The notes below the pieces were generated by a model that had not been told where the DNA came from, made no database searches, and saw nothing but the letters and a program-made list of their open reading frames with translations. From Candidatus Saccharimonas aalborgensis (GTDB lineage Bacteria > Patescibacteriota > Saccharimonadia > Saccharimonadales > Saccharimonadaceae): 32,000 bases of DNA. The translations under genes and the position numbers were made by a program. The stretch lies in the NCBI RefSeq assembly GCF_000392435.1, contig NC_021219.1, forward strand, positions 660,001 through 692,000, written 5' to 3'. Below, one piece after another: positions 18,116 to 30,387 of this stretch. Within the stretch, counting starts at the first letter, position 1, and each line of letters begins with the position of its first letter.

Positions 18116-18499
18116 GGGGCTGACTAAGCTTTCGACGTGAGGACTTTAACAGGCTATTTCGGCATACCGACCTCTGACGTAATCAGAATCAATAATTGCA
18201 AACAATTTCTTTGCAAGGCTGTTTGCGCCCCTCAAGGCACAACCAGTACTCGCTTAACAACATGTTAAGCCACGCATTGCTTGATATCTACTGAAGCTAA
18301 TGTCGTGTTATATATCGTAGAATCGGTAGAAGCTGCTTTTACGACAGTTTCTATTTAAACTCTTCGTAAATCACCGTGTTTGCATCTGCGTCGTACTTTA
18401 AGCAAATAATGTGATTAAACAAAGTTGAGTATGACTATGTATGTAGATGAATAGCAAGTTACCTTGCGGACCCGGGGGCAGTGCCCGGCAGCTCCACCA
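18116..18499 (+). ncRNA. ssrA: tmRNA (SsrA); predicted tag ANNFFARLFAPLKAQPVLA
   Basis: The 5' GGGGCTG pairs with the 3' CAGCTCC, including the G3-U pair, followed by A and CCA. The conserved TTCGACG element lies near the 5' end. The tag frame runs from GCA at 18198 to TAA at 18255-18257. The T-arm is CCGGG-GGCAGTG-CCCGG. Confidence 0.9.
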
Positions 18500-18535
18500 A
18501 CGAAATATACCGACTAATTAGTCGGTATATTTCGT
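18500..18535 (+). terminator. 36-nt perfect palindrome / long hairpin immediately after ssrA
   Basis: ACGAAATATACCGACTAATTAGTCGGTATATTTCGT is followed by TTGAA. The first base is the one after the tmRNA CCA. Confidence 0.55.
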
Positions 18536-18546
18536 TTGAACTGTAA

Positions 18547-18577
18547 AAAACAAGCACCTGCGAGTAGTGCTTGTTTT
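18547..18577 (+). terminator. canonical intrinsic terminator (second, tandem) after ssrA
   Basis: The structure is AAAACAAGCAC-ctgcgagta-GTGCTTGTTTT followed by ATT. Confidence 0.7.
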
Positions 18578-19252
18578 ATTCGTGGAGTTTTTGCAAAATT
18601 TGTTTGTTTTTGGCTTCTGTATAATTTTTTTACTCAGAAGCTACCCCTATAATATGACGTCAAACCGCTCATGTCAATGTTTTTCTTGCAAAATAATGAG
18701 TAAAAAATACTACAATTATAATCACTTTTTTCTATAAAAATGTGTTGAGTCCGGTTGGCGCTATATGGAGGGTGTGCATTGCGGCTAATGGTAGGTCTGC
18801 TAATCAGCTTAAGGGCACTATTGTGACGAGACGGGCGGTCGCTCCGCGAATAGTGACTAGACGCATAAAATTTACGCCGTGATGATGAACTGCACGATTA
18901 CGTACAGCCCGTGCTTTTGTATAGAGCTTTCTCCATCGTGACCATCACGCAAAGAAAATCACGGAGCCACAAAATTGCAGTGTTTGAAGGCTTTGAGCTA
19001 GCTAACGAGTACACTGTGATGAATTATCTGAAGGTTATTCAAATGCGATTCGATACAATCATTTGCTATGCTCGATGCCAAAATTGATAGACGGGTAATG
19101 ATCAAAAGAGGGGTGTAATGTAAAAACAATTAATATAAAATATAGATATTATTACAACACAAGATTTATTCGATTTATAAATATCATAAGGTGTAAAAGA
19201 GAGAATATCTGAAAAAAAATAAAAAATTACAACGACTATTAACATATAAATA

Positions 19253-19281
19253 TTGACTTAATTTACTGTTTATGCTAATTT
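19253..19281 (+). promoter_or_regulatory. strong candidate promoter TTGACT-17 nt-(TGc)TAATTT at the end of a ~22% GC tract
   Basis: The sequence reads TTGACTtaatttactgtttaTGCTAATTT. The upstream 19141-19320 has 39 G+C in 180 nt by my count, so it is UP-element-like. Confidence 0.5.
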
Positions 19282-19352
19282 AAAGTCACGGTTTAAAAAA
19301 CAAAAACCTACAACCTTAACAATTAAAGAACCTCTTGTTATCCGGGCGATAA

Positions 19353-20108
19353 ATGAAGTTGACGGAAAAGCAGGTAACGGCACGCAGCCATCGCGGTGAT
19401 AAAACAGAGATGCTCTATCTCGCAGTTGAGCTGTTCTTATGGCGTTACCTATGCTCCGCCAATACGGTAGGTCCTCTATCTACTGGCGTTGTAGCGCGCG
19501 AAAAAAGTACTATCGCGCTTGGTCAATCCTTGGTACGCTGCTTTGAGCGTAATAGGGAAGCTACCAAGCGTGATGTGGAAACTGTCGCAAGGACCTATGC
19601 TCCACATAGTGGAGCGGTCAGTAGCCACGAGCGGTTAGTGCGGGCGACCCTAATAGTTGTTTATAAAGGTGATTCGCTTATTTTACGCACACCGCTCACG
19701 GCTCCAAACAACCTTACTCAGATAATAGTGTATGATAAATACATGCTAGCAAAAATTATTGCTACAGTAACACTATTGTCGCTTGTTATTCTCTCTGCTC
19801 TGTTTCAAGTTACATCGCCATCTAGCGTTCATCCGCTAGTAATATTGGTGGTGTTTATTTTGATATATTTGGTTGCGCTCGGAGCGCTGACATTTTTCTT
19901 ACACAGCATACAGTCCATTATCACATCCATAGGCTATTCTGGAACAAGGGTCAGTCTACGACGCTCTTATTATTTCGCTTCGGTGCTCGCACTCGCTCCT
20001 GTCATTCTTCTAGCGATGTGGTCGATAGGTAAACGAGATATCTACGGCATACTACTCGTGGCTTTATTTGAAGCGGTCGCTTGTTTCTATCTTGCAAAAC
20101 ACCGCTAA
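19353..20108 (+). CDS. hypothetical membrane protein: C-terminal 4-TM module (confident) with an uncertain 130-residue N-terminal extension
   Basis: From Met131 (ATG 19743) the sequence MLAKIIATVTLLSLVILSALF...LLVALFEAVACFYLAKHR is clearly four TM helices. The upstream 130 codons are open, have about 51% GC like other coding sequence here, and follow the 19253 promoter, but they lack an SD and any motif I recognise. The alternative start at 19743 has TATGAT 6 nt upstream. Confidence 0.5.
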   Translation: MKLTEKQVTARSHRGDKTEMLYLAVELFLWRYLCSANTVGPLSTGVVAREKSTIALGQSLVRCFERNREATKRDVETVARTYAPHSGAVSSHERLVRATLIVVYKGDSLILRTPLTAPNNLTQIIVYDKYMLAKIIATVTLLSLVILSALFQVTSPSSVHPLVILVVFILIYLVALGALTFFLHSIQSIITSIGYSGTRVSLRRSYYFASVLALAPVILLAMWSIGKRDIYGILLVALFEAVACFYLAKHR

Positions 20109-20133
20109 AGCCATACTCTTTTTATATTGTCTA

Positions 20134-20142
20134 TGGTATAAT
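20134..20142 (+). promoter_or_regulatory. extended -10 (TGgTATAAT) 9 nt upstream of ATG 20152 (leaderless or near-leaderless)
   Basis: The sequence reads ctaTGGTATAATttaacagatATG. Confidence 0.5.
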
Positions 20143-20151
20143 TTAACAGAT

Positions 20152-20589
20152 ATGGAACCAAAGCAAGCAGCGCCAACTGGTGGGTATGAGCGACCCCTTG
20201 TATCTCAAGAGGCCGCAGGGAGCCAACCTGTTTATGATGCCGAGCTGGGCTCACATGGCATGGTTGAACAGAGGGGTGAACGAAATCATGAAGGATTACC
20301 GTTATCTCCCGAAGCCCCGTCAGTGCCAGTACAAGCCATACCTTCTTTGCCGATTCCGCTGCCGGTAGTAGATGACACAGTACAGACGACAAATCTGACG
20401 GCGAATGACGACAGTGGCTTGGTCGCTGCAGATGATGACTTGATTGAGAAAGAATGGGTAGAAAAAGCCAAAAAGATACTCCTTCAAACGAAGGATGATC
20501 CCTATAAACGCGAGCAAGAAGTTAGTAAGCTCCAGATCGAATATATACGCAAGCGCTATGGGCGTACAATTAGCGATGCAGGACAGTAA
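20152..20589 (+). CDS. hypothetical protein: ~100-residue disordered P/A/E/D-rich N-terminus plus a conserved-looking basic C-terminal helix
   Basis: I trimmed the start from 20068 to ATG 20152, because the upstream part overlaps the previous gene's end and the promoter. The C-terminus reads DLIEKEWVEKAKKILLQTKDDPYKREQEVSKLQIEYIRKRYGR. The stop overlaps the start of the ATPase gene (TAATG). Confidence 0.6.
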   Translation: MEPKQAAPTGGYERPLVSQEAAGSQPVYDAELGSHGMVEQRGERNHEGLPLSPEAPSVPVQAIPSLPIPLPVVDDTVQTTNLTANDDSGLVAADDDLIEKEWVEKAKKILLQTKDDPYKREQEVSKLQIEYIRKRYGRTISDAGQ

Positions 20590-23417
20590 TGGGTAGTTCG
20601 TTGAATGTTTTTATAACGATGTTTGTTGTTGCAAGTTTTATTATTGCAATCTCGGCAATAGCGTTTTTGATGTATCGTAAAACTCTTCGAGAGGCAAAAA
20701 ACTATGAACGGGGACTAAAGATGGTGCCAATTATGATCCATTTGCCCCCCGCAAGTGACGATATCGAGGTAAATAGTCGGGATAAACGCGATGTTACAGA
20801 GGAAGCGCTTTCCCAGGCGAATGTTATGTACAACATAATCTCCAGTACGGCTACTAAGGGGTTTAAGAGTAAGATTTACGGCCAGCGTCACTTATCATTC
20901 GAAATAGTCGCTCGCAACGGATTAGTCTACTACTATGCCGTGGTGCCTGTCGTATTGATTGACGCGGTAAAGCAGTCAGTGGCGGCCGCCTATCCGTCGT
21001 CTCGACTCGAAGAAGTTTCGGAGCACACGGTCTTTAGCCAAGTTGGAAAATTGAGCGGCACGATTGGCGGAGAGTTCACGCTTAAAAAACATTTTTCGCA
21101 TCCAATAGCAACTTACACTGAGTCCAAGCGTGATGCTTCTCGTGCCCTTCTAAATGCTCTCTCTGCTGCGACGCGTGAAGATGGAATTGGTGTACAAATT
21201 CTGATCCGTCCTGCTCGCGAGAACTGGACATCAAGCTCGCGCAGGGCTGTAGAAAAGATAAAAAAGGATCGAGCAACTGGAAAAACGGCTCACGGTGGTT
21301 TTTTTACTCTTAGAGATATGACTGAAGCATTATGGCGTCCACCTAACCCTGCCGAAAACCACCCTACAGAGCATACGGTGAATACGCAACTTACTGCACT
21401 TGAGCAACAAGAGATTGATGCAATCGAGGAAAAAACGCGATATCCTGGCTTTGAGACGTTAGTGAGAGTGGTAGTCTCATCAAATACCGCAGCGCACGCG
21501 CAGGTACTCCTGAAAAATGTCGTATCGGCCTTTTCGCTGTTTGATTCACCAAACAATAATGGGTTCTCGTTTTCGATTTCCAAAAATATTGATGAACTTG
21601 TGTCCGCGTATGTATTTCGTTTTTTCCCCCAAACCCTATCAAGCAATATTCTGAACAGCATTGAGCTGGCCTCAGTTTTTCATTTGCCAGACCAAGATAG
21701 TATCCCTACATCCCAGGTGCAGCGGCAGATGAGCAAGCAGGTTGATGGTCCCACGCAGGTCATGGAAGAGGGGTTGTTACTGGGCTATAACGAATTCCGT
21801 GGGGTCAAAAAACCGATTAGGTTGGGCGATAAAGACAGGCGCAGGCACATACACATAATTGGTCAGACAGGTGTCGGTAAATCTGTATTACTAGAGAACC
21901 TTGCGTATCAGGACATGATGGATGGACGAGGATTCGCATTTATTGATCCTCATGGTGACTCTGTCGAGGCGCTTCTTAGCAAGGTGCCGAAAGAGCGCGT
22001 AGAAGACGTCATCTACTTTAACCCGAGCGACATGGCGAATCCGACGGGGCTTAATATGTTTGAATTTGATCACCCAGATCAAAAAGATTTCTTAGTCCAA
22101 GAGGCGATCGCTATGCTCTATGGTTTGTACGACCCGGGACACACCGGTATCGTGGGACCACGTCTCGAGCATATTTTTCGTAACTGTGCGCTACTCCTTA
22201 TGAGTGATCCAGCGGGTGGTACGTTTATTGACATTCCAAAGCTTCTTGTGGACGAGGAGTTCATGAAGAGTAAATTAAAATATGTTACTGACCAGCAAGT
22301 TCTCGACTTTTGGACAAAAGAATTTCCGGCATCGCAACGTTCGAGTGAGGCGGGTGAGGTAATAAGTTGGGTAGTATCGAAGTTTGGGCCGTTTATTAGT
22401 AATGATGCAATGCGGAATATAATTGGTCAGACAAAGAGTGGATTTAATATTGCCGAGGTGATGAACAATAAAAAAATTCTTCTCGTTAACCTATCTAAAG
22501 GGAAAATGGGTGATCTTAACTCTAAGCTGCTGGGTATTATATTCGTAATGAAGTTTCAGGCGGCTGCGATGGCTCGTGCAAATATGGCAGAAGAGGAAAG
22601 GAAAGACTTTACACTTTTCGTCGATGAGTTCCAGAACTTTGCGACCGATAGTTTCGGGACTATTTTGTCGGAAGCTCGAAAATATAGGTTGAGCTTGGTG
22701 CTTGGTAACCAGTTTATGACACAGCTAAAAGAAGATTTAAGAGAAGCTATTATTGGAAATGTCGGGACAACAGTGACTGGTCGTATTGGTATCACTGATG
22801 CGGAAATTATGGTAAAGCGCTATGCGGCCGCATTTGACGCGGAGGATCTCACTAAACTTCCAAATCACGAATCGGTGGTTGTGGCACAGATACAGGGTGT
22901 TCCGTCTGCTCCCTTTAGCATGAGCTGGATACCGGCGATGGGGCAGGCAAATCAGCAGCTAAGTGATGCACTGAAGCGACTTTCGGCGGCAAAATACGGA
23001 CGCCCAAGAGCTAAAGTTGAGCAGGAGATATTTACCAGGTTAACCGTGAAGAAATCTCTTTCACCACAAACTCCCGGAGGTTTACCTACAATGTCGGGTG
23101 CCCCCGGAGTTGCCGGTATTCCCGCAGCAACATCGGCTTCGTCCGGATCCTCATTTCTTGATGAGTGGCTGGCAAAGCGGAAACAACTTTCGACTGCACC
23201 GGCTTCACAGACTGCTGCGCAGGCAGCTTCTATCGCGAATCCCGTTACAAATACTATCGACACCACCAGCAACGGGCAGGTATTGACCGCTTCACCATCT
23301 ATACAACAAGCAAGCCAGCCGGTCATTCCCGCTACTGGCGTAGTAGAATCCGATAAGCTGACGCTCCGAGGTGGAGATGAAGTGGCGTCTAATGAGGTAT
23401 CAGTAAAGATTCGTTAG
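20589..23417 (+). CDS. membrane-anchored P-loop ATPase resembling type IV secretion coupling proteins (VirD4/TraG/TraD family)
   Basis: An N-terminal TM helix (VFITMFVVASFIIAISAIAFLMY) is followed by an unrecognised ~390-aa domain. Walker A is IIGQTGVGKS (21861-21884), followed by FAFIDPHGD. Walker B is TLFVDEFQNF (DE at 22623-22628). LSLVLGNQFMTQL...GN.GT resembles the TraG-D_C/T4CP C-terminal motif. Residues ~822-915 form a low-complexity A/S/T/Q/P tail. Confidence 0.75.
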   Translation: MGSSLNVFITMFVVASFIIAISAIAFLMYRKTLREAKNYERGLKMVPIMIHLPPASDDIEVNSRDKRDVTEEALSQANVMYNIISSTATKGFKSKIYGQRHLSFEIVARNGLVYYYAVVPVVLIDAVKQSVAAAYPSSRLEEVSEHTVFSQVGKLSGTIGGEFTLKKHFSHPIATYTESKRDASRALLNALSAATREDGIGVQILIRPARENWTSSSRRAVEKIKKDRATGKTAHGGFFTLRDMTEALWRPPNPAENHPTEHTVNTQLTALEQQEIDAIEEKTRYPGFETLVRVVVSSNTAAHAQVLLKNVVSAFSLFDSPNNNGFSFSISKNIDELVSAYVFRFFPQTLSSNILNSIELASVFHLPDQDSIPTSQVQRQMSKQVDGPTQVMEEGLLLGYNEFRGVKKPIRLGDKDRRRHIHIIGQTGVGKSVLLENLAYQDMMDGRGFAFIDPHGDSVEALLSKVPKERVEDVIYFNPSDMANPTGLNMFEFDHPDQKDFLVQEAIAMLYGLYDPGHTGIVGPRLEHIFRNCALLLMSDPAGGTFIDIPKLLVDEEFMKSKLKYVTDQQVLDFWTKEFPASQRSSEAGEVISWVVSKFGPFISNDAMRNIIGQTKSGFNIAEVMNNKKILLVNLSKGKMGDLNSKLLGIIFVMKFQAAAMARANMAEEERKDFTLFVDEFQNFATDSFGTILSEARKYRLSLVLGNQFMTQLKEDLREAIIGNVGTTVTGRIGITDAEIMVKRYAAAFDAEDLTKLPNHESVVVAQIQGVPSAPFSMSWIPAMGQANQQLSDALKRLSAAKYGRPRAKVEQEIFTRLTVKKSLSPQTPGGLPTMSGAPGVAGIPAATSASSGSSFLDEWLAKRKQLSTAPASQTAAQAASIANPVTNTIDTTSNGQVLTASPSIQQASQPVIPATGVVESDKLTLRGGDEVASNEVSVKIR

Positions 23418-23446
23418 AAAGGCGTTGCAATGAGCGCAAGCGAGCG

Positions 23447-24016
23447 CTAGCGTCTTCCTGTCACCATTGTCTTTAAGAAGTCAAATACAAGACCAACAAT
23501 CCACCCAAGCAGGAAGAACATCATCGTTTCACTACCGGAAAGAGGATAGCCATTCATTCTGCCTACAAGATAAAACCCCAGAGTGAATAAGAATGCAAAG
23601 AAGGCACCAGAAGCGACTGCGTTTGGACGCGCGACAGTTGATCCAAGTGTCTCGCTGATCTTTTCTACTGTAGGGTTATGAATAACTTTGCTAAACGTGC
23701 GGCTTGAGTTTGACATGTGTGTCCTAACATCGTCCATGGTAGACTCAAAGCTAGCTTCACGCTCTTTCTTTGAAATAGCACCGGGACGTCGTTCTACGCG
23801 AGACACTTCCTCTTTGGGTTCCTTCTCGTGAGCACTACTTGAGGCACTTTCGAGCGCTTCTTTGCGAGCGGTTTCTTGATTGCCTTCATGACCTTTCTCG
23901 GCGGATAAACGTTCTCTTTCGTGAGCTAATCTCTCGTGATGAGCTGTTTCCTCGAGTTGTGGGGCTTCATGCTTAGTTGCTTCGTATTGTTCTGGATTCT
24001 TTTCAATTTTATTCAT
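23447..24016 (-). CDS. hypothetical membrane protein: His/Glu/Lys-rich N-terminal region plus a C-terminal two-TM hairpin
   Basis: GAGGTGG lies upstream of the ATG. The N-terminus is charged and repetitive in composition (HEAPQLEETAHHERLAHERERLSAEKGHEGNQE). The C-terminus reads AVASGAFFAFLFTLGFYLVG...MMFFLLGWIVGLVFDFL. The gene lies 34 nt downstream of the LPXTG gene on the same strand. Confidence 0.6.
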   Translation of the reverse strand: MNKIEKNPEQYEATKHEAPQLEETAHHERLAHERERLSAEKGHEGNQETARKEALESASSSAHEKEPKEEVSRVERRPGAISKKEREASFESTMDDVRTHMSNSSRTFSKVIHNPTVEKISETLGSTVARPNAVASGAFFAFLFTLGFYLVGRMNGYPLSGSETMMFFLLGWIVGLVFDFLKTMVTGRR

Positions 24017-24050
24017 ACACCACCTCTAGATTTGTTTAAAGATATATTTA

Positions 24051-25709
24051 TTAGATAGTACCTGAGTTTAGCTCGCGACGAATGAGACGAACCTCTTTTT
24101 TCATCTGGCGTGAACGTGCATAGAAATAGGATACAACTGCCAGTATAGATCCGGCAAAGAGCATATTCTCCGCGGGACCAGTGTGTGGGAGCTGAGATAC
24201 TGTTTGCTCGATAATTTTTTTCTGAACAGGACAGTCAACCGAGATATCAACTGAGTTGCCAAAGGTATTTGTTATCTTACAATCGTACGATGTTTTGTCG
24301 CTGACACCTTCTCCCATCGCGGGGATGGTATTAAACACTTGGACGGTGAACATGCGAGTCTGTTTTTCTCCAGGCTTTAGGGTAATGGTCGGCCACGTCA
24401 AAACTTTATTTGACAAAGTACCACTGCCGTTATCGATGACGCTTGAATATTCGAGGACATCACTAAGTTCTTCGCGAATTGATACAGATGTGGGAGCGAG
24501 TCCCTTGTTTTCTATATTGAGGCTATACACGACTCTATCAGATGGTTTTGCGACGACACTTGTCGCGTCTTTACCCTGGGTAGTGTTTTGGGCAGTCTTT
24601 GTTTCTACCAGTGAGGCTTTGCATTTTTGATCCTTAATCCAGAGAGTTGCATCTCCCGGACATGGTTGACACTCTGGGTCACTTTTTAGCAATGACGGGT
24701 TTTGTGGACACTTTTCGGGGGCAGCAATGTGAAATGTCTTCGTACAATCATCTCCCCGCATCTCACCCAGAGAGGTTTGTACTACTAACTCAATCGTATA
24801 GTCGCCCTCTACTCCCTTTGAATCGAAGACGTATTGATTGGTGTCTGAAGTAGAAGATGCAGGATGGGTTTCCACTACTATACCGTTTCTCTTAATGACG
24901 TAGGTATATTTGGCGATAGTTGCACCATGATCAACATAGGCTTTCCCATCGAGCTGATAAAGGTTATTTGCGAGGGGAGTAACCGAAAGACGCTCACATC
25001 GTGCCACGGGCTCATACTTACATCTCGCATCATCGGCGGTGATGGTGGTTTTACCCGGTATAGTACACATCTTTGGTGGGGGTGTGCAGTTTGGATAGGT
25101 ACCTACCGTTCCGGCGGGACATTGTGGAGGTGGGGGAACTGTTTTTGTTACTAGGTTTCCACATACTTTCATTAGGCCGAACCAGCCTAACTTTGCCGAA
25201 TATCCTACGTATATATAATAGTTTGATCCTGATGGAGCACTATTCCAAAGGGTCAAGGGCCGATTATAGTAGGTACGCATTGCCCCAGACGATGTCTTAA
25301 TAGTGTATGTCCGTTCTCCCTGGGCGTAGCTAAAGTGGCTAGTTAGTCCCCAGCTGATAAGGCCATCACGTTTTGAATTAAGATATTGCAATTTTGCCGC
25401 CGCCATCTCCTGGCGGGTAATACCTAGCGTATTATAGAGGTCGCGTATATTGTTGGTATTCGCATCGTAGTGATTTAGATAGTCCTGTAGACTAGTGACG
25501 CCGCCATAAATGAAGTTTGATGGGCTGGATGCATTTGCTGATTCGGGAGGTGAAAATACCGCAAATGACTGTACAACGAGTGCGAGTACAGTAAAAATAA
25601 GCCCTATGCGTCGGGTCGTTTCTTCTTTTCGTAGCCTTTTTGCGTAAAACCCAAGCTGACCGACGAGAGCCGGGCTAAATGCGATGTTTGATATTAGTTT
25701 TCTAAACAT
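24051..25709 (-). CDS. LPXTG-type cell-wall-anchored surface protein with a Cys/Pro-rich linker and a DUF11/CARDB-like repeat region
   Basis: The C-terminal sorting signal is LPHTG (24177-24191), a hydrophobic stretch MLFAGSILAVVSYFYA, and a basic tail. The N-terminal signal anchor is RRIGLIFTVLALVVQSFAVF. The linker is PPPPQCPAGTVGTYPNCTPPPKMCTIPGK. VVYSLNIENKGLAPTSVSIREELSDVLEYS..LTWPTITLKPGEKQTRMFTVQV resembles the conserved repeat domain (DUF11). I chose ATG 25709 (AGGTGA upstream), with ATG 25745 as the alternative. The track start at 25808 was rejected. Confidence 0.75.
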   Translation of the reverse strand: MFRKLISNIAFSPALVGQLGFYAKRLRKEETTRRIGLIFTVLALVVQSFAVFSPPESANASSPSNFIYGGVTSLQDYLNHYDANTNNIRDLYNTLGITRQEMAAAKLQYLNSKRDGLISWGLTSHFSYAQGERTYTIKTSSGAMRTYYNRPLTLWNSAPSGSNYYIYVGYSAKLGWFGLMKVCGNLVTKTVPPPPQCPAGTVGTYPNCTPPPKMCTIPGKTTITADDARCKYEPVARCERLSVTPLANNLYQLDGKAYVDHGATIAKYTYVIKRNGIVVETHPASSTSDTNQYVFDSKGVEGDYTIELVVQTSLGEMRGDDCTKTFHIAAPEKCPQNPSLLKSDPECQPCPGDATLWIKDQKCKASLVETKTAQNTTQGKDATSVVAKPSDRVVYSLNIENKGLAPTSVSIREELSDVLEYSSVIDNGSGTLSNKVLTWPTITLKPGEKQTRMFTVQVFNTIPAMGEGVSDKTSYDCKITNTFGNSVDISVDCPVQKKIIEQTVSQLPHTGPAENMLFAGSILAVVSYFYARSRQMKKEVRLIRRELNSGTI

Positions 25710-25762
25710 GGCGTCACCTGTTGTATGTTTATATTTAGGAATCATATACTTCTTTCGTGTGT

Positions 25763-25771
25763 ATTTTAGCA
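25763..25771 (-). promoter_or_regulatory. extended -10 (TGcTAAAAT) for the LPXTG operon
   Basis: The minus strand reads cttaTGCTAAAATacacacg. Confidence 0.45.
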
Positions 25772-25817
25772 TAAGAAATATGTTCAAGACAATACCTTGA
25801 ATGAACAATTTTTTTTA

Positions 25818-25826
25818 TGGTATAAT
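25818..25826 (+). promoter_or_regulatory. extended -10 (TGgTATAAT) for gyrB-gyrA
   Basis: The motif ttaTGGTATAATgg lies about 44 nt upstream of the gyrB ATG. GAGGGGAG directly precedes the ATG. Confidence 0.55.
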
Positions 25827-25848: not shown

Positions 25849-27846
<1,998 letters not shown>

Positions 27847-27855
27847 AGGTGAAAT

Positions 27856-30387
27856 ATGGAAGACGACATGACGACAAATGTACCAACAAGTGACGATGAT
27901 ATGAGCCTTGATACTCCTGCTGAAGTGGCAGGCATCGAGCATCGAACTATTGAAAAGGTAATGGAGGACAGCTTCTTCCGTTACTCGATGAGCGTGATTA
28001 TTGACCGCGCACTGCCAGATGTGCGTGATGGATTAAAGCCAGTTCATCGCCGCATTCTTTATTCTATGAATGTCAATAACAACCGATCGACCGCAAAGTT
28101 CGTGAAAAGTGCGCTTATCGTCGGTGATGTTATGGGAAAATACCATCCGCATGGCGATAGCGCCATCTATAACGCGATGGTCCGCCTTGCACAACCATGG
28201 TCACTTCGCTACCCACTCATTCAGGGACAGGGAAACTTTGGTTCAATGGATGGCGACGAACCAGCAGCGATGCGTTATACAGAAGCGCGTATGGCGAAGC
28301 TTGCCGATGAGATACTCGTAGACATTGATAAAGAGACGATCGATTTTCGCGACAACTACGATGGCTCACGCCAGGAGCCAGTTGTGCTGCCCGCGAAAGT
28401 TCCGAACCTACTGCTAAATGGCCAGATTGGTATTGCCGTGGGCATGGCGACAAATATCCCTTCGCACAACCTTAGTGAGCTTGTTGATGCCACGGTTGAG
28501 CTGATCGATAATGATCAAGCTACAACAGATGATCTGCTAAAACATGTTAAAGGCCCTGATTTCCCAACTGGAGCGACAATTTATGGTGGCGCGCCTATGC
28601 GCCAAGCGTACCAGACGGGGCGAGGCAGTGTGATGATGCGCGCTGTGGCAGATATTGTCGAGACGAAAAAAGGTAGGCACCGGATAGTGGTTACAGAGGT
28701 TCCTTATGGTGTCAACAAAGCTTCTCTCATCGAAAAGATTGCTGAGCTAGTCAAAGATAAAAAGTTAAATGGAATTAGCGACCTTCGAGATGAAAGTGCT
28801 CGCGGTGCAGTGCGGGTTGTTATTGAGCTCAAGAAAGACGCTTACCCTAAGAAGTTACTCAATCAGCTTTACAAGCTAACGCCGCTCCAGACGAGTTTTA
28901 ACTTCAACATGCTTGCGTTGATCGATGGCGTACAGCCTCGCATCTTAGGCCTTAAAGAAATGCTCGAAGAGTTTGTAAAGCATCGACAGCATGTCGTGCG
29001 CCGGCGCACCGAATATGAGCTTCGTAAGGCACGTGAGCGTGCACACATTCTGGAAGGTTACAAGATAGCGCTTGACCACATAGATGAAGTGATCAAGACA
29101 ATCCGTGCTAGTAAAACTCAGGATGAGGCTGAAAAGGCCTTGATCGCCAAGTTTGAGCTAACTGAAATACAAGCTAAGGCAATACTTGCAATGCAACTCC
29201 GCCGACTCACGGGACTTGAACGAGAAGCAATTGAGAATGAACTGACAGAACTATTAACCATGATTAAGCGCTTCGAAGAAATCTTGGCTGACGAGAAAGA
29301 AATTCTCGCGATCATAAAATCAGAACTGCTTGAAATGAAAGATAAGTACGGTGATGAACGTCGTAGTAAAATTATCAACCATGAGCTTGGTAAGTTTAGT
29401 GACGAGGAATTAATCCCCGAAGAGGAAGCAGTTGTGCTTTTGACAACAGAAAACTACATTAAGCGTACACTACTCACAGAGTATCGTCGTCAGCATAGGG
29501 GCGGTAAGGGCAAGCGCGGTATGACAACAAAGGAAGAAGATGTCATTGCCCAACTCGTATCGGCAAGCACGCATGATTGGTTGTTGTTCTTCACGAACAA
29601 AGGGCGAGTATTCCGTCTTAAGGCGTATGAAGTTCCAGCAGCAAGTTTGGCGGCAAAAGGTGTAGCAGCGGTAAACTTACTCCAGCTTCAGCCGGAAGAG
29701 AAAATCACTTCAATTATCAATCATGCCAAAGATGCTCCAGATGACGGCTATCTCTTTATGGCGACGACAAAAGGTACTGTTAAGAAAACACCGCTTAAAG
29801 ACTACGCAAATATTCGCACTAACGGACTTATCACTATCAAACTGGATGATGGGGATGAACTGCGATGGATCAAACAAACATCGGGTGAGAATGATGTTGT
29901 GATATCCACATCAGCCGGGCAGGCAGTGAGGTTTAACGAGTCCGAGTGTCGACCAATGGGACGTGCCGCAAGAGGTGTACGAGGTGTCAGGCTTAGGCCA
30001 AATGACATAGTTGTAGGTATGGATGTGGTCACCGTTAGTGAACAAACGCTGCTCGTCATCAGTCAAAACGGGTACGGAAAGATTACAAAAGTGGCAAACT
30101 TTCCGAGCCATAAGCGGGGAGGGGTGGGAATAAAAGCCGCTGTTGTAACAAATAAAACGGGACCTATTATCACTGTTCAAACACTAGAAGCAGGAGCGAA
30201 TGAAGCACTACTCATTAGTCAGGGTGGACAGACGATCCGTGTTTTGTTAAGTGATATCCCGACACTTGGTCGAACTACACAGGGAGTGCGTATAATGCGC
30301 TTGTCCGAAGGGGATGCTGTTTCTTCAATCGGCATTATGCAAGAAACCGAACTGTCTCTCGATGGAGATCAAGAGGAGAAGGGATAA
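27856..30387 (+). CDS. gyrA: DNA gyrase subunit A
   Basis: The N-terminal region reads [28 protein letters not shown]. The QRDR is [20 protein letters not shown] with active-site Tyr context RYTE. The C-terminal beta-pinwheel repeats and GyrA box [10 protein letters not shown]-like ([13 protein letters not shown]) are present. GAGGTGA lies upstream. Confidence 0.97.

Follow-up and report, generated by a model that had tools for sequence, protein, structure and literature searches.

Type IV coupling proteins (T4CPs), such as TrwB of R388, VirD4, TraD/TraG, DotL and Cag-beta, are membrane-anchored P-loop ATPases of the FtsK/HerA superfamily. They usually have two transmembrane (TM) helices, the anchor stands directly before the nucleotide-binding domain, an all-alpha domain lies within the latter, and they are encoded with relaxase/Dtr genes or with a type IV secretion system (T4SS). 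VirB4, represented by TrwK of R388 (PDB 7o42, 7o43 and 8rtd), has a co-linear two-domain architecture, and its gene is preceded by virB3. In Patescibacteria, 5,713 VirD4-like homologues have been counted in 2,918 of 3,035 genomes, nearly all of them far from virB4 (Quinonero-Coronel et al., 2025, Microb Genom; PMC12102498). Here we analyze a 32,000-nt stretch of Candidatus Saccharimonas aalborgensis (NC_021219.1), called the window below and the reference for all coordinates, and in it a locus between the transfer-messenger RNA (tmRNA) gene ssrA and gyrB that encodes an ATPase of this kind together with two small proteins. The family itself is not new to annotation, and a previous survey treated its members as orphan Patescibacterial T4CP homologues. 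New here are a predicted VirB4-like N-terminal domain and the partner genes, neither of which that survey describes, as well as the separation of the ATPase from a neighboring LPXTG cassette, the link to an essential gene, and a structured RNA that had no annotation. The three plus-strand genes are the following:

19743-20108, plus strand: orfA, membrane protein of 121 aa with about four TM segments
20152-20589, plus strand: orfB (p145), 145 aa
20589-23417, plus strand: membrane-anchored VirB4/T4CP-like ATPase, 942 aa

A first-pass annotation of this DNA, made from the sequence alone, had read the 942-aa open reading frame (ORF) as a membrane-anchored ATPase of VirD4/TraG/TraD type from four motifs, GQTGVGKS, FIDPHGD, LFVDEFQNF and LVLGNQFMTQL; these and the anchor are indeed present, and its affinity to T4CPs, rather than to FtsK, is borne out by profile searches. 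The Pfam domains TraG-D_C (26.8 bits, cut-off 22) and TrwB_AAD_bind (25.8 bits, cut-off 20.5) are found, as is DUF87 (24.2 bits, cut-off 23.2), and among PDB sequences TrwB (6e-9 when a family profile is used) and DotL (2e-6) match best, with HerA weaker. The Walker A context of TrwB (HxxxxGxTGxGKS...DPxGD) and its DEF/ARK motifs at Walker B align with the ATPase, and all 30 diverse family members in an alignment share K431, D679, E680 and Q708. As full-length families, T4CPs have NCBIfam thresholds (250-650 bits) far above what the ATPase scores: 34 bits against 250 for CD1115, 33.6 against 366 for SXT_TraD and 23 against 648 for TOL TraD; Pfam PF02534 gave no match. FtsK was rejected as the family because it appears neither in the profile searches (no Pfam match to FtsK_SpoIIIE, the gamma-domain or FtsK 4TM) nor among the PDB sequence matches, and HerA was rejected as the best family because it scores below the T4CPs. 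The protein can be divided as follows:

20589-20717, plus strand: N-terminal TM helix, residues 1-43 (hydrophobic core 7-28, then YRKTLREAK; from hydropathy)
20721-21728, plus strand: DUF8128 domain (PF26449), residues 45-380, alpha/beta, predicted fold like the VirB4 N-terminal domain
21774-23048, plus strand: P-loop ATPase domain, residues 396-820
21861-21884, plus strand: Walker A, GQTGVGKS
22080-22466, plus strand: all-alpha bundle inserted within the ATPase domain, residues 498-626 (in the structural model)
22614-22640, plus strand: Walker B, LFVDEFQNF
23049-23417, plus strand: disordered, low-complexity C-terminal tail, residues 821-942

A full-length AlphaFold2 model built on the 30 diverse sequences reached a predicted local distance difference test score (pLDDT) of 80.7 and a predicted template-modelling score (pTM) of 0.71. 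It begins with a helix at residues 3-43, and basic residues following the TM segment suggest, by the positive-inside rule, an N-out/C-in topology with both domains in the cytoplasm. When this model was compared with the PDB by Foldseek, the first-ranked match was TrwK/VirB4 of R388 (E 8e-14), in an alignment of about 910 columns that covers both domains. TrwB aligns with the ATPase half (E about 4e-12; target-normalized template-modelling score, TMt, 0.62) and is followed by Cag-beta, DotL and HerA, the last (4d2i) with a TMt of 0.52-0.53, below that of TrwB. The N-terminal domain modelled separately (pLDDT 85, pTM 0.83) gave 14 significant matches in the PDB, all of them TrwK/VirB4 chains (E 2.8e-6 to 1e-3), with modest query-normalized scores (TMq) of 0.38-0.44; the next matches are unrelated folds with E>0.01. 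We assigned this domain to DUF8128 through precomputed Pfam PF26449 matches on the N-terminal part of homologues, and a literature search found no paper that names it; the first-pass annotation had overlooked it, along with the RNA that lies under the first ORF. In the tail, pLDDT is mostly below 50 past residue 822, with one helix predicted at 856-868. Homologue matches commonly stop near residue 820, tail length varies, and in some representative homologues the C terminus is extended by 500-1,000 aa.

Sequence and model together portray the ATPase as a hybrid with an anchor of its own, in which a VirB4-like N-domain precedes a coupling-protein-like ATPase domain that contains an all-alpha insertion. 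It is probably a hexameric member of the FtsK/HerA superfamily anchored by one TM helix. Whereas T4CPs usually have two such helices, with the anchor directly before the nucleotide-binding domain, here a 340-aa VirB4-like domain lies between anchor and ATPase domain. Compared with VirB4, the protein has its own TM helix, its ATPase domain is closer to T4CPs, and it has no VirB4 profile match: AAA_10 remained sub-threshold (17 bits, cut-off 27.5), and CagE_TrbE_VirB and TraC gave nothing. HerA, for its part, has a HAS barrel at its N terminus and NurA as partner; the N-domain matches VirB4, not the HAS barrel, and no NurA-like gene was found near the ATPase gene.

Both small partners recur with the ATPase in Saccharibacteria. 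The orfA product has about four hydrophobic segments by hydropathy, is 50-83% identical to its aligned orthologues, and is present in 32 of the 33 Saccharibacteria loci that include the upstream flank. Because most of these orthologues are about 120-135 aa long, we place its start at ATG 19743, and not at 19353, from which a 251-aa ORF can be read; the first-pass annotation, right about the three plus-strand genes, had over-called this one in using the longer frame. Just as virB3 precedes virB4, this small polytopic protein is encoded just upstream of the ATPase. However, we rejected a VirB3 identity because searches of Pfam and NCBIfam, VirB3 and PrgI included, returned no match for orfA. VirB6 and VirB8 neighbors, as in VirB4 clusters, are absent. 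The stop codon of p145 overlaps the ATPase ATG by one base (TAATG), suggesting translational coupling. Its N-terminal part is variable and of low complexity, whereas the last 50 aa are strongly conserved in the alignment (DDDLIEKEW...KDDPYKREQE.SKLQIEYIRKRYGRTI). A p145 homologue occupies this slot in 31 of 33 loci, and the other two have a divergent, low-complexity, disordered ORF there. Neither p145 nor p189, a minus-strand neighbor treated below, could be assigned to a family in Pfam or NCBIfam. A small ORF also abuts the ATPase start in other classes of the candidate phyla radiation (CPR), in at least three families, but homology of these proteins with p145, or among themselves, could not be detected (hhalign probability about 0.2); they are positional analogues only on present sequence comparison, and the three-gene unit is therefore shown only for Saccharibacteria.

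The ATPase, in contrast to its partners, spans the phylum. A word-indexed search returned more than 7,000 homologues, and an exhaustive one 20,445 clusters at 50% identity with E<=1e-3 and 5,219 with E<=1e-30; the full-length matches reach as low as about 30% identity. We surveyed 86 related loci, taking genome-locus taxonomy from the best 80; these come from Saccharibacteria, Berkelbacteria, Magasanikbacteria, Woesebacteria, Levybacteria, Daviesbacteria, Peregrinibacteria, Gracilibacteria and others. The closest homologue with an organism name, at 90% identity, is from Ca. Saccharimonas aalborgensis, and the homologues thus agree with the earlier placement of the window in Saccharibacteria. 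In Saccharibacteria whose ATPases are 42-90% identical the order comM, tmRNA region, orfA, p145, ATPase, gyrB-gyrA is repeated; in other CPR classes the neighbors include dnaX, DivIC, a Xer-like recombinase, ribonucleotide reductase and cysS. Neither T4SS nor relaxase genes flank the ATPase in any of the 86 loci, and profile searches of the window recognized no relaxase, VirB4, VirB6 or VirB8 gene. T4CPs are encoded with such genes; the ATPase, unlike them, is chromosomal, core and, in its apparent counterpart described below, essential.

Two further observations come from this survey. In 5 of 41 non-Saccharibacteria loci (L048, L058 and L077 among them) the ATPase gene is accompanied by a second paralogue of DUF8128 type, either in tandem or no more than about 3 kb away. 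In addition, records labelled Pristimantibacillus, Sulfotelmatobacter, Gammaproteobacteria and Bdellovibrionales (e.g., L019, L032, L046, L051) carry the ATPase gene, L019 and L032 in the Saccharibacteria gene order and L046 and L051 as CPR-type homologues of 37-38% identity; they are probably mis-binned or mislabelled contigs of metagenome-assembled genomes (MAGs).

Published fitness data for Saccharibacteria come from transposon insertion sequencing (Tn-seq) of Southlakia epibionticum ML1 in co-culture with Actinomyces (Wang et al., 2023, Cell, Table S1; PMC10633639). The ML1 gene order is comM, 4-TM gene, small gene, ATPase, 2-TM gene (minus strand), DUF11 gene (minus strand), gyrB, gyrA, PAP2 and 16S (PMC10633639). 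The calls, made by a hidden Markov model and given where they are triplets for P0/P1/P2, are as follows (ES, essential; GD, growth defect; NE, non-essential; all from PMC10633639):

SEML1_0138, minus strand: YifB/ComM; NE
SEML1_0140, plus strand: 354 nt, 4-TM counterpart; NE/GD/GD
SEML1_0141, plus strand: 420 nt, p145 counterpart; GD/ES/ES, with 9 input insertions falling to 0
SEML1_0142: ATPase counterpart, 1,019 aa; ES/ES/ES, with 9-11 insertions tolerated; core family, Patescibacteria-enriched
SEML1_0143, minus strand: 582 nt, 2-TM counterpart; NE
SEML1_0144, minus strand: 1,608 nt, DUF11, Ig-like folds; NE

From gene order, gene lengths and annotation, the window ATPase is the apparent orthologue of SEML1_0142. 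The NCBI name of the latter, "TraM recognition domain-containing protein", is the one borne by close homologues of the window protein, although it belongs to a different genus and has 1,019 aa as against 942. SEML1_0142 is absent from the main text of Wang et al. (2023), and its essential call is in the table only (PMC10633639). ML1 also has a second T4CP-like paralogue, SEML1_0293, which is non-essential, and an essential T4SS, SEML1_0006-0019, without a recognizable coupling protein or relaxase, in which SEML1_0008 is a separate VirB4 annotated via structural matches of TraC/DUF87 type (PMC10633639). This cluster is about 110-130 kb from the ATPase locus. Thus the earlier statement that no recognizable T4SS accompanies the ATPase stands for the window, as for the 86 loci, but in ML1 an essential T4SS is encoded at that distance. 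The 2025 survey called a single "ML1 t4cp homologue" non-essential (PMC12102498); that homologue fits SEML1_0293, not SEML1_0142.

Taken as a whole, the plus-strand genes fit a core membrane translocation motor of the VirB4/T4CP clade that is needed for growth of the epibiont. The explanation that we favor, and hold tentatively, is that this motor is the missing coupling or energizing ATPase of the essential, relaxase-less Patescibacterial T4SS. The ATPase would be made together with p145 and the 121-aa 4-TM protein. Its VirB4-like N-domain, together with the 4-TM partner, would hold it at the membrane in the way that VirB3 docks VirB4, and its hydrolysis of ATP would move a macromolecular substrate between epibiont and host.

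The remainder of the region consists of two minus-strand genes and of the anchors, whose positions at tmRNA and gyrB are confirmed:

18116-18499: tmRNA (ssrA), Rfam match of 88.8 bits
23447-24016, minus strand: p189, 189 aa, His/Glu-rich, two TM segments
24051-25709, minus strand: LPXTG-type surface protein, 552 aa from the M at 25709, with LPHTG at 24177-24191
25870-27846: gyrB, the anchor downstream of the locus
27856-30387: gyrA, after gyrB
from 31020: 16S rRNA gene

Five protein genes therefore lie between tmRNA and gyrB, orfA, p145 and the ATPase on the plus strand and p189 and the LPHTG protein on the minus strand. In the surface protein a conserved signal-anchor at the N terminus is accompanied by Cys/Pro-rich linkers and an Ig-like domain of DUF11/CLIPPER type. 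Its LPHTG motif is followed by a hydrophobic segment and a conserved, unusually long R/K-rich basic tail of 24 aa; motif and C-terminal tail are invariant in orthologues of 42% overall identity, and the protein is probably sortase-anchored, as judged from these features. No sortase was recognized among the Pfam-annotated genes of the window; ML1 has two, SEML1_0327 and SEML1_0711 (PMC10633639). Orthologues align from M34, so that 25709 is most likely the start. The earlier description of an LPHTG protein and a His/Glu-rich two-TM protein on this strand was correct but for its start at 25771. By hydropathy and alignment, p189 has a His/Glu-rich N-terminal region and two hydrophobic segments; it is co-transcribed downstream of the LPXTG gene, and of the 26 non-redundant loci with an LPXTG gene, 25 have p189 adjoining it.

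The pair is less constant than its neighbors. It is present in 21 and absent from 11 of the 32 non-redundant loci that reach gyrB, and where it is absent the ATPase abuts gyrB; in two loci (L040 and L041) it is inverted. The five-gene synteny whose conservation had been proposed for checking is thus kept in many relatives, though not for the LPXTG pair in those 11. Relative to locus L001, identity is 78% for the ATPase, 42% for the LPXTG protein and 43% for p189. LPXTG/p189 is best seen as an independent, fast-evolving and dispensable surface-protein cassette that often stands between ATPase and gyrB.

Upstream of orfA lies a conserved RNA element, listed here with the putative promoters of the operon:

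19254-19282, plus strand: putative promoter TTGACT-17-TAATTT, a weak match read from the sequence and absent from the consensus scan
19372-19700, plus strand: conserved structured RNA, about 330 nt long, immediately before orfA
20134-20142, plus strand: extended -10 element TGgTATAAT, 9 nt before the p145 start codon

For the 19372-19700 RNA, RNAalifold predicts 34 pairs from eight sequences of different Saccharibacteria, and 17 of these show compensatory changes. The proportion of paired cells is 97.3% and drops to 24-51% when the partners are slid; none of 500 shuffles attains the observed covariation. The window sequence has a minimum free energy of -141.7 kcal/mol (z = -5.4), and invariant G-U pairs place the RNA on the plus strand. 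Searching with a covariance model (R1) recovered 12 Saccharibacteria sequences, one from the window and the others from 11 loci, four of which are outside the training set; in every case the element lies directly upstream of orfA. No match was obtained in Rfam 15 at E<=1. This leader is a candidate new RNA class that may act on the operon as a cis-regulatory or riboswitch-like element, and the putative promoter at 19254-19282 would serve both it and the 4-TM gene. The sequence TATGGTATAAT is present at 20132-20142 before p145 and at 25816-25826 before gyrB. It may be a strong promoter consensus of this organism and may give p145 and the ATPase a promoter of their own, from which the mRNA would be leaderless or have a very short leader.

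A second RNA candidate lies in the 775 nt downstream of ssrA, a stretch previously described as empty:

18545-18677, minus strand: candidate small RNA of about 100 nt, just 3' of ssrA and on the opposite strand

This unit has a promoter close to consensus (TTGACA-17-TATTAT), one hairpin at its 5' end and another as terminator, and a conserved AACUCCAC motif that is single-stranded. Identity is 72-84% across many Saccharibacteria, its orientation relative to the ATPase is inverted in some loci, and 12 of its 22 pairs have compensatory changes. In Rfam the only match is IS128, sub-threshold at 35 bits against 80. Immediately 3' of tmRNA, at 18500-18536, is a perfect 37-nt palindrome, ACGAAATATACCGACTAATTAGTCGGTATATTTCGT, probably a bidirectional terminator common to ssrA and the minus-strand small RNA. 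Farther on, 18715-19130 comprises about 400 nt of relatively GC-rich sequence, with no ORF of >=60 aa, that is conserved only in the relative of 90% identity (L004); it may be what is left of a decayed gene, or else non-coding DNA specific to the lineage. In ML1, too, the non-coding stretch that separates comM from the 4-TM gene is unusually long (Wang et al., 2023; PMC10633639).

How well does a T4SS role for the ATPase withstand the alternatives? It is favored by the essential ML1 T4SS that has no recognizable coupling protein and by the non-essential status of the other paralogue, SEML1_0293, and T4CP genes are often far from virB4 (PMC12102498). Several points weigh against it. In none of the 86 loci is there a physical or genetic link to a T4SS gene, and 148 of the 5,713 Patescibacterial T4CP homologues are near virB4; moreover, these homologues occur in 2,918 and VirB4 in 2,417 of the 3,035 genomes (PMC12102498), implying that some genomes may have the ATPase without a T4SS. 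The orthology to SEML1_0142 is drawn from gene order, lengths and annotation rather than sequence alignment, and Tn-seq in an obligate epibiont cannot separate host-interaction from cell-autonomous functions. The neighbors, dnaX, DivIC and a Xer-like recombinase in other CPR and gyrB/gyrA in Saccharibacteria, could hint at a DNA or cell-cycle role, and an autonomous machine, too, would be well served by a VirB4-like N-domain, a membrane partner of its own and an adaptor-like protein. In such a machine the ATPase, the 4-TM protein and p145 would work at the cytoplasmic membrane independently of the VirB4 T4SS, moving a macromolecule such as host nucleic acid or protein or assembling an envelope structure, which we consider credible though rather unlikely. 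The N-domain, membrane partner and coupled small protein of the locus speak for it, as does the lack of any clustering with T4SS genes. The excess of genomes with T4CP-like genes over those with VirB4 (PMC12102498) also favors it, but could stem from MAG incompleteness and from two paralogues per genome. The operon encodes no channel-sized membrane protein (orfA has 121 aa), and a conserved three-part machine is shown only within Saccharibacteria, given the hhalign probability of 0.2 across classes. Further in favor of this machine, no route for the uptake of host RNA by Patescibacteria has been established in the literature, a 2026 preprint having reported such uptake by one Patescibacterium, and the ATPase has a weak P-loop match to the NCBIfam model of the archaeal DNA-import ATPase CedD (22.9 bits against a threshold of 600). 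The archaeal Ced system (CedB/CedD) resembles the locus in combining a VirB4/HerA-like membrane ATPase with small TM partners, chromosomal and non-conjugative; however, the CedD score is far below threshold, and we found no CedA-like channel protein and no evidence of DNA import here. A Ced-type counterpart, in which the orfA-p145-ATPase trio would import host RNA or DNA, alone or at the base of a T4SS pilus, with the leader RNA setting expression as a metabolite or nucleotide sensor, is in our estimate very unlikely. If true, it would explain why a phylum that cannot make nucleotides has a near-universal, essential coupling-protein-like ATPase.

The T4SS role that we favor must also be set against readings outside translocation. 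An FtsK/SpoIIIE-like or TraB-like ATPase for segregation, DNA pumping or the divisome would be essential without any host interaction. It would accord with the FtsK/HerA superfamily, with the adjacency of gyrB-gyrA in Saccharibacteria and of dnaX, DivIC and a Xer-like recombinase in other CPR, and with Table S2 of Wang et al. (2023), where the ECOD domain given for the ATPase part of SEML1_0142 is that of FtsK 2iut (PMC10633639). Yet the FtsK domains, as noted, are missing from the profile and PDB matches, ML1 already has a separate canonical and essential FtsK, SEML1_0096 (PMC10633639), a Patescibacteria-enriched family is unexpected for a universal cell-cycle role, and the neighbors are in separate transcription units and simply housekeeping; we regard this explanation as quite unlikely. 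The first-pass annotation had suggested as plausible that the ATPase and LPXTG operons form one host-interaction or macromolecule-transfer module on a compact ssrA-gyrB island. Surface adhesins do assist Gram-positive T4SSs in general, and the five genes stand side by side in the window, as they do in 21 of 32 related loci, but the absences and inversions of the pair, its sharply lower conservation and its opposite fitness in ML1, where the ATPase genes are essential and the pair is not (PMC10633639), leave a single module highly improbable. The island did not survive analysis either: GC content is 0.40-0.49 inside the region and 0.42-0.51 outside, the interval from ssrA to gyrB contains no integrase gene, the ssrA 3' end is not repeated downstream of the locus, a direct-repeat search gave no island signature, and the region is syntenic across Saccharibacteria. 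We conclude that this is a conserved core locus of Saccharibacteria, vertically inherited, with an ATPase that is core and Patescibacteria-wide. The same points bear on a conjugative-element remnant or a defense system such as MADS. Genes for ssrA are integration hot spots, and PADLOC places mad8 on the ATPase core (67.5 bits, residues 408-770; HerA models up to 31 bits). MADS combines mad8 with other mad genes, whereas here the mad8-like core stands alone: PADLOC returned nothing for the four neighboring proteins, and no relaxase, integrase or T4SS genes are adjacent. MADS was rejected on that ground, the one MADS paper found holding no domain information on mad8. With its recurring gene order, phylum-spanning family, essential syntenic counterpart and normal composition, the locus makes a remnant or defense origin the least probable of all these readings.

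The rest of the window consists of housekeeping genes, as had been said, with the exception of an integrase-like gene at 1047-2123. Abutting the 3' end of this tyrosine-recombinase (Phage_integrase) gene, which is on the minus strand, is a copy of the tmRNA 3' end (AGTGCCTGCCTGCTCCACCA) at 1003-1040 on the plus strand, matching at 17 of 20 positions where 0.00 such copies are expected by chance. It can fold into a GGAGCA/TGCTCC-ACCA minihelix and may be either what remains of an old att site or a tRNA-like element. Because it lies 17 kb upstream of ssrA, it is no border of the region studied here.

Patescibacteria account for much of bacterial diversity and live off material that they draw from host bacteria. 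The ATPase described here, a near-universal T4CP/VirB4 hybrid by prediction, is a concrete candidate for the missing motor of their T4SS. ML1, the one genetically tractable Saccharibacterium, is the source of the only published Saccharibacterial Tn-seq, and the published view that its t4cp homologue is dispensable must be qualified: ML1 has two paralogues, one of which is essential (PMC12102498; PMC10633639).

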